Origin: Elusimicrobiota bacterium
Lineage (GTDB): Bacteria > Elusimicrobiota > Elusimicrobia > Elusimicrobiales > UBA9959
Direction: 5' to 3'
Assembly: GCA_003482905.1 (NCBI GenBank)
Contig: DMXM01000036.1
Span: 117,201 to 181,200, forward strand
DNA: 64,000 nt
Shown: positions 10,581 through 12,254 of the stretch, in pieces
Layout: each line of letters opens with the position of its first letter
How positions within the stretch are numbered: the stretch's first letter is position 1
The notes under the pieces: model-generated
Databases searched by the model: none
What the model was told of the DNA's origin: nothing
The model's input: the letters and a program-made list of their open reading frames with translations, nothing else
Made by a program: the position numbers and the translations under genes

Positions 10581-12254
10581 ATGATTAAAAAGTGGGAAGT
10601 GGTTCCGGCGCCCAGCGAAAAAAATCAAGGCCGGCATAAACTCCTGATAAAGGGGGATACGAAGGACATTCTGCAGATAGTCAAAAAGCTGGGCGGCCTC
10701 TGTTCCCGCCCTGAAAAGACTACGGGTGAATTTAATTTTGTCATCTATCTGTCCAGACTTGAGAAGGACACGCTGAAGAAGCTTAAGTCCGTGGCCGGTG
10801 AACAAAGCTCTCCGGCCGCGGACGCGGGTTCTTTCGGCGAGGAGCCCCCGCTTTTCGATATCCCCAGGCCCAGGCTCAAGCTGGAGCCCGCTCCGGCGCC
10901 GCAGTCCGCGCCGGCCCCGGTGATCCCGCAAACGGCTTCGCAGGGGGCTAACGTCCCGTCCATTTCCGCGCGCAGAAAGAAGTCGGCGGCCCCGGAGACC
11001 GCCGCCGAGCGGCCCGCCGCCCTGGCTCCGGCGCATCAGGCTTCCATCTCGGCCAGGGCAAAGACCAAGTGGTCCATGGAGCTGCCGCTTATCCCGACCT
11101 ACAGTTTCCAGACGCTGATCTCGGGCTCGCACAACCGCTTCGCGCACGCGGCCGCCATGGCCGTGGTGGAGAACCCGGGGGTGATCTATAACCCGCTGCT
11201 GCTCTTCGGCGCGCCGGGCACCGGCAAGACTCATTTTATCAACGCCATCTCCTATGGGCTTTCCGCCTCCATAGGACAGAACAATATTTTCGTTACCGAC
11301 GGGATAAAGCTTTCCAGGGGTATTGAAATAGTCTGTAAAGAGGGGGGGATGGCCCGGCTCGAGGAGATCTTCGCCAAGGTGAAGGTGCTTATAATCGACG
11401 ACGTGCATCTCCTGGCGGTCTCCGAAACCAACAAGAAATACATCTCGAAGTGGCTTAACGACTTTGTGGCGCAGAACAAGCAGATAGTGGTAACTTCGGT
11501 TTTTCCTCCTAAATCCCTGGCGGGGCTGGAGGAAGCGGCCGGCTTCCAGTTCTCGCAGGGCTGGATGGTGGACCTTAAGATGCCCGGCGCCCAGGCTTAC
11601 AAGTCCATAATGACGCAGATCCTGCAGGGCCTGGACGTGAAGCTTTCGGAAGATGAGATCACCTCTATTTTCGCCAGCGGTACGATGTCGTTCGGGGACG
11701 CCGAACGTACGCTGGGGGACATGAAGAAGCTGGAGAAGTTCCTCGTCAGCTCCCGCAACAGTCTCTCGCACCTGCAACTGCTGGACACGCTCATCGGCTT
11801 CGGCGAGACGCCGGTGCCGGGAGCCCTCAGCGACCAGGACGTACAGCAGGCCTCCGCCTGGACGCCGTCGCAGAAGGACACCTGGTTCAAATGGGGCATT
11901 TTCTACCCCAGGGGGATGAAGCGCGAGGCTGACTTCGCCCTTTATTCCCTGCATGAGCGCGCCAGGGAGCTGGGCCTGAATACCGAATGGAGCCAGGTCT
12001 TCGCCGAGGAGTACAACTCCGACGAACTTTACGGCGTGCCGTTCAGGGTGGGGAATTACGCCAGCGAGAGGAACGTGAACGGGGTCATAGTGCTGGGACC
12101 GCAGCCGACTTCCTCCCTGGGCGCGCAGGAGGCGGAGTTCCGCCATATTGTTTTCAAGATACTGGACAGTTTTCTGATAAAGGGCGCGTGGCTCCCGCAG
12201 GGGAAATTTAAGTCGAAAGCCGCCTACGCTAAAATCCTTATGGACCTGGTGTAA
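10581..12254 (+). CDS. DnaA-domain-III (AAA+) paralogue lacking the DnaA DNA-binding domain
   Basis: Residues about 168-405 align colinearly with DnaA domain III: [52 protein letters not shown] (Walker A), [10 protein letters not shown] (Walker B) and [10 protein letters not shown] (sensor I). I recognise no domain IV HTH. The N-terminal (about 165 aa) and C-terminal (about 122 aa) regions are unrelated to DnaA. Confidence 0.8.
   Translation: [557 protein letters not shown]

Follow-up and report, generated by a model that had tools for sequence, protein, structure and literature searches.

A DnaA-like protein of Elusimicrobiota with box VII arginines and domain IV replaced: sequence anatomy, gene neighbourhood and a putative role as a nucleotide switch or adaptor

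Locus and domain layout

The window analysed here, a stretch of 64,000 nucleotides (64 kb) to which all positions refer, contains a gene for a DnaA-like protein that stands in a row of genes read in the same direction. These genes, and the segments recognised in two of their products, are as follows.

8082..8672, + strand: protein X, zinc ribbon (CxxC...CxxC motif) and transmembrane (hydrophobic segment); no Pfam match
8751..10571, + strand: protein Y, 606 aa; no match in Pfam, NCBIfam or PADLOC
10194..10568, + strand: C-terminal domain of Y, homologous to the C-domain of the DnaA-like protein (hhalign)
10581..12254, + strand: DnaA-like gene, 557 aa, ATG start (ORF call; Pfam and NCBIfam)
10581..10805, + strand: N-domain, aa 1-75, small domain of beta-beta-alpha-beta-alpha topology in which the CSRPEK motif is invariant (alignments A1 and A3)
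10806..11066, + strand: linker, aa 76-162, Pro/Ala-rich and disordered (variable, gapped columns in alignment A1)
11067..11096, + strand: conserved pre-AAA+ motif, aa 163-172 (census of 120 sequences)
11094..11600, + strand: AAA+ base domain (DnaA domain IIIa), aa 172-340 (PF00308 and alignments to DnaA in the PDB)
11208..11234, + strand: Walker A (residue census)
11313..11333, + strand: ISM segment SRGIEIV, including E249 (profile alignment to B. subtilis and A. aeolicus DnaA)
11388..11408, + strand: Walker B, LIIDDVH (residue census)
11487..11510, + strand: sensor I region VVTSVFPP, including V307 (alignment to SSDRPP of DnaA)
11526..11564, + strand: box VII equivalent, including A319 and Q323 (HMMER alignments)
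11601..11870, + strand: lid (domain IIIb) and connector, aa 341-430 (profile alignment)
11685..11714, + strand: sensor II stretch, including G372 (NIRELEGAL against PLGEVAKTL in the profile alignment)
11883..12251, + strand: C-domain, aa 435-557, (beta-alpha)4 flavodoxin-like fold in place of DnaA domain IV (AF2, Foldseek)
12258..14186, + strand: membrane-anchored histidine kinase, GAF-HisKA-HATPase_c, 642 aa (Pfam)
14211..16893, + strand: lipoprotein trio, consisting of Z (365 aa, lipobox), a GNA1162-like and a CsgG/LpoB-like protein (Pfam; loci L001-L008 and L083)

The initial annotation had described a DnaA domain III flanked by foreign sequence, with domains I and II replaced by a small alpha/beta domain and a Pro/Ala-rich linker, and domain IV by an unrelated domain. 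This layout is borne out. The N-domain of 75 aa is modelled by AF2 as a small alpha/beta domain (pLDDT 82.4), for which neither Foldseek nor Pfam gave a significant match. The linker that follows varies from 18 to 2097 aa across the family, and in the giant members it forms coiled-coil. The long forms (1100-2568 aa) were considered as fusions of Y with the DnaA-like protein, and this was rejected because the Y profile detects no Y domain within them. Directly before the AAA+ domain lies a motif of the pattern K-W-x-x-E-L-P-L-x-P, in which 120 sequences agree without exception on W164, E167, P169 and P172.

The C-domain of about 123 aa is modelled with confidence (AF2 pLDDT 90.6) as a (beta-alpha)4 fold and is not an HTH. 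Foldseek returned generic matches only (lumazine synthase, Ago MID, MogA) at TM 0.5-0.6 and E ~4e-4. The C-domain was also considered as a CheY-like receiver of the adjacent kinase; this was rejected, as the top Foldseek matches include no receiver and strand 3 is not followed by a conserved acceptor Asp.

Relation to DnaA and state of the active site

The central part of the protein is matched by Pfam Bac_DnaA (PF00308) at aa 172-330 with E 4.9e-29 and 102 bits against a cutoff of 23, covering model positions 3-161 of 162. Against the PDB, phmmer aligns aa 167-377 colinearly with DnaA from B. subtilis (E 9e-25), T. maritima (1e-19) and A. aeolicus (3e-17), and a profile of 27 family sequences improves the match to E 1e-36. 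Base and lid of the AAA+ domain are colinear with the DnaA structures (8BTG, 2Z4R, 1L8Q/3R8F), and the identity to B. subtilis domain III is about 35%. The common features are the segment P-x-Y-x-F...G..NRFAHAA...YNPL, Walker A GxxGxGKTH and Walker B IDD. The initial annotation had predicted a match to PF00308 without one to Bac_DnaA_C (PF08299), which is what was found: Bac_DnaA covers approximately aa 170-330, and neither Bac_DnaA_C nor DnaA_N is matched in the protein even at E <= 1. By these alignments the protein is a descendant of DnaA domain III. It falls below the cutoffs for the initiator itself, whose Pfam domain set is PF11638, PF00308 and PF08299, with 131.5 bits against 343.9 for the DnaA equivalog TIGR00362 and 97 bits against 410 for NF001154.

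The state of the active site was assessed by a census of 120 close homologues, all members of the same clade. Walker A, Walker B and sensor I lie where the initial annotation had placed them. G210, G213, K216 and H218 of Walker A are invariant (120/120), as are D273 and D274 of Walker B, while T217 is Thr in 117 sequences and Ser in three. The Walker A Lys is also kept in 119 of 121 representative clusters. Judged by this invariance, strict purifying selection acts on Walker A and Walker B. Outside these motifs, K333 is an invariant residue specific to the family.

The residues of DnaA that act beyond the pocket have been replaced in the clade. The box VII stretch aligns in HMMER with B. subtilis LEDRLRSRFEWGL, which places A319 at the position of E. 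coli R281 and Q323 at that of the finger residue R285. The first position is A in 87 sequences, S in 18, Q in 5, T in 4, N in 4 and G in one; the second is Q in 109, E in 9 and D and K in one each. The earlier observation that box VII carries no Arg thus extends to both positions in all 120 homologues, and no better alignment, by HMMER or with the family profile, brings back an arginine finger. The DnaA-specific sensor I Asp (E. coli D269) corresponds to V307 (V99 L17 M3 A1), and the sensor II Arg (R334) to G372 (G80 N19 S17 R3 T1). A different register, with the sensor II Arg replaced by a Lys in KKLEK, was rejected in favour of the HMMER profile register that gives G372; two divergent members keep Arg there. 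In the ISM, E249 (E84 D33) stands at the position of B. subtilis I190 and E. coli V211, a hydrophobic residue that contacts ssDNA in DnaA.

It is important to note that among the 121 representative clusters with the same C-domain, 32 have R and 23 have K at the finger position. On this distribution, the arginine finger was lost in the protein's own clade and not throughout the family, the deeper branches keeping Arg or Lys. Since these clusters retain R or K, the family at large may consist of active oligomeric ATPases. The clade could use a substitute finger residue, for example K333.

The protein should also be compared with Hda, from which the initial annotation had set it apart by size and architecture. 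Hda and HdaA are mostly proteobacterial proteins of approximately 230-250 aa that consist of the AAA+ domain only, with a functional arginine finger and a QL[SP]LPL clamp motif. They resemble the DnaA-like protein in that both have a DnaA-type AAA+ domain without domain IV and a short conserved motif before it, and K-W-x-x-E-L-P-L-x-P occupies the place that the clamp-binding motif QLSLPL has in Hda. A RIDA factor of the Hda type would bind the beta clamp through this motif and inactivate DnaA-ATP. We regard such a role as very unlikely, since the motif is without the key Gln and resembles QLSLPL only loosely, and RIDA requires the Hda arginine finger, where this protein has Q323. The difference noted initially is also upheld: the match to the Hda equivalog TIGR03420 reaches 27.7 bits where the cutoff is 194.8, and the protein, at 557 aa and with three extra regions, is 2.3 times as large as Hda.

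A weaker similarity exists to the helicase loaders. Pfam gives a secondary match to IstB_IS21 (E 2e-9, 37.7 bits, compared with 102 bits for Bac_DnaA), and the AAA+ clades of DnaA, DnaC and IstB are related, so a loader of the DnaC/DnaI type might be proposed. This is scarcely credible. The similarity to DnaC, DnaI and IstB is far weaker than that to DnaA (NF005931 DnaC, 11.6 bits against 357; NF038214 IstB, 38 bits against 200); these proteins have other N-terminal domains and keep the finger, which helicase loaders require of their own. In addition, Elusimicrobia use DciA and are without dnaC/dnaI (PMC5109545; bioRxiv 10.1101/2022.01.24.477630).

The genomic context also differs from that of an initiator gene. 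The absence of an origin, dnaN and DnaA boxes, claimed at the outset, is confirmed for the whole 64-kb window: its full Pfam annotation contains no dnaN, recF or gyrB, it has zero TTWTNCACA boxes, and a six-frame search found neither a DnaA domain IV nor another DnaA-like sequence. No GC-skew inflection was seen near the gene, and Rfam and tRNA scans of the window gave no hits. E. coli domain IV, used as a phmmer query, matched neither the six-frame window nor any of 81 loci with their flanks of +/-10 kb; DnaA boxes, dnaN and domain IV are absent from the window and the 81 related loci alike. In E. minutum, dnaA is found in a dnaA-dnaN-recF-gyrB-gyrA operon context (PMC5109545). At the level of the phylum, the literature thus indicates a separate canonical dnaA, and hence that the gene described here is a putative paralogue.

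Several members of the family are labelled 'chromosomal replication initiator protein' by JGI, and in Endomicrobium, an Elusimicrobia endosymbiont, dnaA is a pseudogene and so dispensable (PMC5174739). Most members have a basic N-domain (median net charge +5, range -6 to +9). These observations might suggest a divergent or alternative initiator in which DNA binding has shifted to the N-domain, but this is extremely unlikely. Domain IV, the arginine finger and the sensor II Arg are missing, the ISM residue is acidic, the surrounding 64 kb has no DnaA boxes, dnaN or GC-skew turn, and dnaA of E. minutum lies in its standard operon context. For the role of a relocated DNA-binding domain the N-domain is a weak candidate, being without a structural match and acidic in about 20% of family members. 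The protein is almost certainly not the replication initiator, and the JGI label is a misannotation that could mislead origin prediction in Elusimicrobia MAGs.

Family and gene neighbourhood

The DnaA-like family comprises 162 clusters at 50% identity with E <= 1e-30. It has more than 250 homologues, and every named one is from Elusimicrobiota, as are all genome loci (72/72) gathered by searches that included a scan with the closer C-domain alignment, A2. The general architecture is a small N-domain, a disordered linker, a DnaA-like AAA+ domain and a (beta-alpha)4 C-domain of about 123 aa; N-domain, AAA+ and C-domain occur together in 86 of the best 150 representatives listed. This family is previously undescribed and, among named members, is found only in Elusimicrobiota. 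The protein in the window carries both family hallmarks, the N-domain with CSRPEK and the (beta-alpha)4 C-domain, each highly conserved. The best 150 matches of an exhaustive search consist of family members and tandem AAA+ proteins, with no canonical DnaA among them.

The order of the genes in the window matches that of related loci: Y, the DnaA-like gene, the kinase (inserted in most lineages) and the lipoprotein trio. The gaps between the first three genes are 1-15 nt, or the genes overlap by 4 bp. Here the stop codon of Y lies 9 nt before the DnaA-like start, and the kinase begins 3 nt past the DnaA-like stop; an overlap of stop and start by 4 bp is frequent in the latter pair, as in L003, L004, L006 and L007. 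Of 68 loci, at least 60 have Y directly before the DnaA-like gene and at least 62 have the GAF kinase directly after it. Protein X is a variable member of the block, present in 40 of 81 loci.

Protein Y has a short conserved helix at its N-terminus and a conserved domain at its C-terminus; the disordered region between them is acidic, rich in P, E and A, and repeats motifs of the form [DE]x[KR]T[LIVM]x-hydrophobic. The C-terminal domain is homologous to the C-domain of the DnaA-like protein: hhalign aligns the two end to end over 113 columns with a probability of 89.6% and E 1.9e-6, a link that emerges with deep profiles only, shallow ones giving a probability of 0.8%. The pair scores 38.6, while reversed and column-shuffled controls reach at most 17.9. 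Used as a query, the C-domain of Y found eight matches, all unannotated and from Elusimicrobia or unnamed sources. Even one deep-branching relative is accompanied by a minimal Y of 173 aa.

The GAF kinase is absent in the deepest branches (L008, L082, L083), and it is therefore not the ancestral partner. The lipoprotein trio adjoins the DnaA-like gene even there and is the most universally conserved neighbour. A PilT/GspE-type ATPase is encoded upstream in L007, L082 and L083, and the conserved neighbourhood includes the DNA-processing genes comM, dprA, topA and xerC. Part of this conserved block could reflect frozen gene order and not function. A known anti-phage defence system was considered and rejected, the PADLOC models giving only short P-loop matches of at most 31 bits for the DnaA-like protein.

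The persistence of the trio where kinase and Y are absent (L008, L083) raises the question of an envelope apparatus. The protein would then be a cytoplasmic ATPase for assembly or tethering that serves the lipoproteins (LPP20-like, Z, GNA1162-like, CsgG-like), with the linker as a spacer, for which its variation in length and the coiled-coil of the giant forms would be suitable. In deep branches it would possibly also serve the PilT/GspE-type ATPase, perhaps in connection with DNA uptake (comM, dprA). We consider this improbable. The protein is without a membrane segment or secretion-system signature, PADLOC and Pfam provide no links, and the association consists of gene order within one phylum only.

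Possible function

The explanation we prefer is that the DnaA-like protein serves as the nucleotide-bound switch or adaptor of a three-gene module (Y, DnaA-like, GAF kinase) specific to the phylum, and is neither an initiator nor Hda nor a helicase loader; we give it about an even chance of being correct. DnaA domain I is lost, and so is domain IV, which in DnaA binds dsDNA and DnaA boxes. Most likely the protein would bind nucleotide, yet neither trigger hydrolysis in an adjacent subunit nor contact DNA in the manner of DnaA. It would then act as a switch or adaptor that follows the nucleotide state, and not as a motor or origin binder. The related C-domains of the DnaA-like protein and Y may bind one another, or a partner that both proteins share. 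In the protein's own clade the likeliest partner would be the downstream membrane-anchored GAF histidine kinase, and the three proteins would form one signalling or scaffolding module.

An alternative is that the protein acts on DnaA itself as a filament cap or anti-initiator. It keeps the nucleotide face that receives a finger but would be unable to donate a finger or bind DNA, and could for that reason stop a canonical DnaA-ATP oligomer from growing by docking on one of its ends, or else keep DnaA sequestered at the membrane; the GAF kinase would then control replication initiation. DnaA domain III is by far the closest known relative (131 bits; Hda reaches 27.7 and IstB 38), and the loss is asymmetric, with Walker A and B invariant yet the finger gone. 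The anchoring of the kinase in the membrane and the neighbourhood with comM, dprA, topA and xerC are also consistent with it. However, the supposed contact with DnaA is purely conjectural, the neighbourhood may be frozen synteny, and the unique N- and C-domains are left unexplained. The deep-branching relatives keep the finger, so capping would not be the ancestral role. We find this alternative possible, though unlikely.

A more elaborate form would make Y, the DnaA-like protein and the GAF kinase a phylum-specific replication checkpoint. A catalytically disabled mimic of DnaA, tethered to the membrane by the domain in common with Y, would take the arginine finger of true DnaA, pass none on, and cap or sequester DnaA-ATP oligomers on a signal from the kinase. 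This is doubtful, but if the protein does act on DnaA, replication initiation would be controlled in a new way in a phylum with hardly any cultured members.

To our knowledge, the known roles of DnaA-clade AAA+ modules are few: initiator, Hda, helicase loaders and transposition helpers. The family described here is a further offshoot of the DnaA clade, deeply conserved and phylum-wide, with two new domains and a hundred-fold variation in linker length. Its catalytic apparatus decays stepwise on a strictly conserved nucleotide pocket. The members with and without the finger form a natural series in which to study how an initiator ATPase turns into a switch or scaffold.

Among the best-scoring non-members, at approximately 130-150 bits, are uncharacterised proteins with two tandem DnaA-type AAA+ domains (P0245, and P0246 from Gemmatimonadota). 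Like the DnaA-like family they are without domain IV. Unlike the clade, they have a canonical box VII (ERLRSR) and sensor II (NIRELEGA). They belong to another phylum, have neither the N-domain nor the C-domain, and have a PatA_N protein and che genes as neighbours.

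The DnaA-type AAA+ domain and its catalytic residues

The open reading frame of the DnaA-like protein (10581-12254, + strand) is confirmed, and its product consists of 557 amino acid residues. Residues 172-330 match the Pfam family Bac_DnaA (PF00308, E 4.9e-29), and neither Bac_DnaA_C nor DnaA_N was detected by Pfam, even at E <= 1. This is the outcome predicted by the initial annotation, which had described a DnaA domain III without domain IV. The best matching solved structures are those of DnaA from B. subtilis (E 9e-25), T. maritima and A. aeolicus; the alignments are colinear over residues 167-377, and a family profile lifts the match to E 1e-36. 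The NCBIfam scores are 131.5 bits for the DnaA equivalog TIGR00362 (cutoff 343.9), 27.7 for Hda, TIGR03420 (cutoff 194.8), 38 for IstB (cutoff 200) and 11.6 for DnaC (cutoff 357).

In the alignments with the PDB sequences and with the family profile, the 13-residue equivalent of DnaA box VII pairs with LEDRLRSRFEWGL. A319 is therefore the equivalent of E. coli R281 and Q323 that of the E. coli arginine finger R285, and the replacement of the box VII arginines noted initially is upheld. The profile alignment adds three losses to that list: G372 occupies the position of the sensor II arginine (NIRELEGAL), V307 that of the DnaA-specific sensor I aspartate (SSDR), and E249 that of the ISM hydrophobic residue. 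The latter, B. subtilis I190 or E. coli V211, contacts single-stranded DNA.

Among 120 homologues with identities of 42% or more, Arg is never present at the R281 position. The finger position is occupied by Gln (109), Glu (9), Asp (1) or Lys (1), and the sensor II position by Gly (80), Asn (19), Ser (17), Arg (3) or Thr (1). Walker A residues G210, G213, K216 and H218 and Walker B residues D273 and D274 are invariant in the same set, and the nucleotide pocket is under strict selection. The protein would be unable to act in the manner of DnaA, because it is devoid of the DnaA-box-binding domain, the arginines responsible for filament formation and triggering of hydrolysis, and the single-stranded DNA contact.

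A function as an Hda-like protein, as a helicase loader or as the sole initiator is in each case unlikely. All scores lie far under the cutoffs of these families, and the protein has no finger. Elusimicrobia use DciA (PMC5109545; bioRxiv 10.1101/2022.01.24.477630), and the phylum has a canonical dnaA lineage. The dnaA operon context is present in E. minutum (PMC5109545), and dnaA is a pseudogene in Endomicrobium (PMC5174739).

Across 121 representative clusters carrying the C-domain, the finger position contains Arg in 32, Ser in 27, Lys in 23 and Gln in 20. Sensor II Arg is kept in 7 clusters and sensor I Asp in 5, and Walker A and B are near-invariant. Finger loss is not a family-defining trait. 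Since Arg is retained chiefly among the most divergent members, the family ancestor probably had a working finger, which has been lost by the clade of the window.

The terminal domains and protein Y

Residues 420-557, modelled by AlphaFold2 on a 29-sequence alignment, form a four-stranded (beta-alpha)4 domain (pLDDT 90.6). In a Foldseek search of the PDB, nothing more specific than a generic flavodoxin-like fold was matched (lumazine synthase, Argonaute MID, MogA; E about 4e-4, TM 0.5-0.6, identity 10-17%), and neither an HTH nor a receiver domain was among the matches. For the N-terminal 78 residues the model (pLDDT 82) shows a small unit of beta-beta-alpha-beta-alpha topology, which has no significant structural neighbour in Foldseek (best E 0.05). 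This unit is joined to the AAA+ domain by a Pro/Ala-rich linker, as the initial annotation had proposed for an alpha/beta N-terminal domain. The linker varies from 18 to 2097 residues across the family, and its giant forms are acidic and coiled-coil.

The hhalign profile of 232 C-domains aligns end to end with that of 68 C-termini of Y, the disordered protein encoded upstream, over 113 columns (probability 89.6%, E 1.9e-6, score 38.6). The controls scored 17.9 for the reversed profile, at most 17.1 for twenty column-shuffled profiles and at most 16.5 for other domains of the block. The C-terminal domains of the two proteins are therefore homologous. For the rest, Y has no detectable family in Pfam, NCBIfam or PADLOC. 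Its disordered region carries one to five copies of a [DE]x[KR]T[LIVM]x-hydrophobic motif in 64 of the 68 proteins, which may be a peptide docking site; examples from Y of the window are DKTIIL, DKTVIL and EERTVIF.

Gene neighbourhood and possible function

The window is unexceptional chromosomal DNA of a groundwater Elusimicrobia MAG. The block around the DnaA-like gene is as follows.

Upstream, in order: hrcA-grpE-dnaK-dnaJ-rsmE, two MNT-type nucleotidyltransferase ORFs, mtaB-like gene, X (zinc-ribbon membrane protein)
8751-10571: Y, acidic disordered protein, 606 aa
10581-12254, +: DnaA-like gene
Downstream, in order: GAF-HisKA-HATPase kinase with a single N-terminal membrane helix, then lipoproteins Z, GNA1162-like and CsgG-like
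Block end: comM, LysM protein, dprA, topA, xerC

The remaining genes are metabolic and housekeeping. The 64 kb contain no dnaN, recF or gyrB, no TTWTNCACA box and no RNA gene; no frame encodes a further DnaA homologue or a DnaA domain IV, and GC skew has no inflection. The lack of origin context reported initially is thus borne out and, together with the sub-cutoff scores and the lost finger, supports its interpretation of a DnaA-derived protein that is unlikely to be the initiator.

This gene order recurs in nine loci of homologues (35-72% identical). By a strict automated test on 68 loci with sufficient flanking DNA, the kinase is directly downstream in 62, three more misses being ORF-boundary artefacts, and Y is directly upstream in 60, with six further artefacts. 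The remaining exceptions are L008 (a long form), L009 (an unrelated tandem-AAA+ locus) and L078 (no kinase). The window gaps are 9 nt from Y to the DnaA-like gene and 3 nt from there to the kinase, and stop and start overlap by 4 bp in loci L003, L004, L006 and L007. Deep-branching relatives retaining the Arg have no kinase and keep the lipoprotein trio; in one of these loci, L083, Y is minimal (173 aa), and two of them carry a PilT/GspE-type ATPase gene on the upstream side. A 1556-aa form is without both Y and kinase and retains Z, comM, dprA, topA and xerC. The conserved block may in part be inherited gene order.

The most economical reading, to which we give about an even chance, is a nucleotide-dependent switch or adaptor, which would be coupled to Y through the common C-domain and, in this clade, also to the co-translated membrane GAF kinase. 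In a sharper version, which is attractive but seems unlikely, the protein would mimic DnaA, taking a finger from true DnaA with none to donate, and so would cap or sequester DnaA oligomers. Similarly unlikely is a role in an envelope apparatus. It is suggested by the universal linkage of lipoproteins to the DnaA-like gene and by the gene for a PilT/GspE-type ATPase (PF00437, about 357 aa) that precedes the DnaA-like gene by one or two genes in the deep-branching loci L007, L082 and L083.

In L002, L007 and L083, Z is immediately preceded by the gene for a lipoprotein of roughly 150 aa that resembles LPP20 by eye; this gene follows the kinase in the first two loci and the DnaA-like gene itself in L083. 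The first two also have a bacterial microcompartment locus directly upstream. In locus L001 the MNT slot is occupied by an orphan response-regulator receiver gene. Other features of the window are listed here.

6064-6372 and 6380-6688, +: tandem 102-aa Polbeta/MNT nucleotidyltransferase-type ORFs, ~80% identical (PF18765, E 4e-9), flanked by rsmE and the mtaB-like gene, HEPN partner not evident
9963-13667, -: antisense ORF of 1234 aa, opposite Y, the DnaA-like gene and the kinase
23326-24768, -, and 43778-45019, +: alpha-amylase-family paralogues sharing Alpha-amylase, Alpha-amyl_C2 and AMT4_dom_C domains
31309-32751, -: NrfA-type cytochrome c552 nitrite reductase
42162-42680 and 42673-43725, +: overlapping genes for a UVR-motif protein and an ATP:guanido phosphotransferase, a McsA/McsB-like pair (protein arginine kinase), more familiar in Firmicutes
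49625-51115, 60418-61944 and 61964-63616, +: histidine utilisation (formiminotransferase-cyclodeaminase, hutH, hutU)
56875-59088, +: CHASE2-adenylate/guanylate cyclase

Conserved homologues exist for the genes on the + strand, so the antisense ORF is almost certainly an artefact of GC-rich sequence.

Extent of the family

Of 256 relatives retrieved by a word-indexed search, all that are named come from Elusimicrobia; their labels are 'hypothetical', 'DnaA/Hda family protein', 'ATP-binding protein' and, in JGI records, 'chromosomal replication initiator protein'. An exhaustive search of 1.84 billion representatives gave 162 clusters at E <= 1e-30. The best 150 of these include no canonical DnaA; they are proteins of 400-2568 aa aligning from AAA+ through the C-terminus at 27-56% identity. 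Among them, 86 have N-domain, AAA+ and C-domain, 34 have AAA+ and C-domain (many being fragments), and 14 have two tandem canonical DnaA-type AAA+ modules with the C-domain absent. All named C-domain carriers are Elusimicrobiota, and a C-domain pattern scan with one genome per species found 72 loci, in Elusimicrobiota MAGs or MAGs titled only 'bacterium'. The protein is a new architecture within the DnaA/Hda kind of AAA+ proteins, confined to one phylum.

The tandem proteins (P0245 from L009, P0246, P0250, P0258-P0267) are a separate family of roughly 600-700 aa with canonical box VII and sensor II, without domain IV and without the C-domain of the DnaA-like family. One is from Gemmatimonadota, and the gene in L009 overlaps a PatA_N-domain gene and is itself situated downstream of a chemotaxis cluster.

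The MAGs SKS1.bin104 (L026 and L034) and binchicken_co356_8 (L056 and L059) each have two separate loci with the C-domain; the gene could be truly duplicated there, or strain heterogeneity or a binning error could be responsible. The JGI/IMG label 'chromosomal replication initiator protein (DnaA)' is attached to the domain-IV-less homologues P0004, P0021, P0033, P0034, P0037, P0049, P0056, P0085, P0086, P0091, P0104 and P0127. Predictions of origins in Elusimicrobia MAGs could be led astray by this misannotation.
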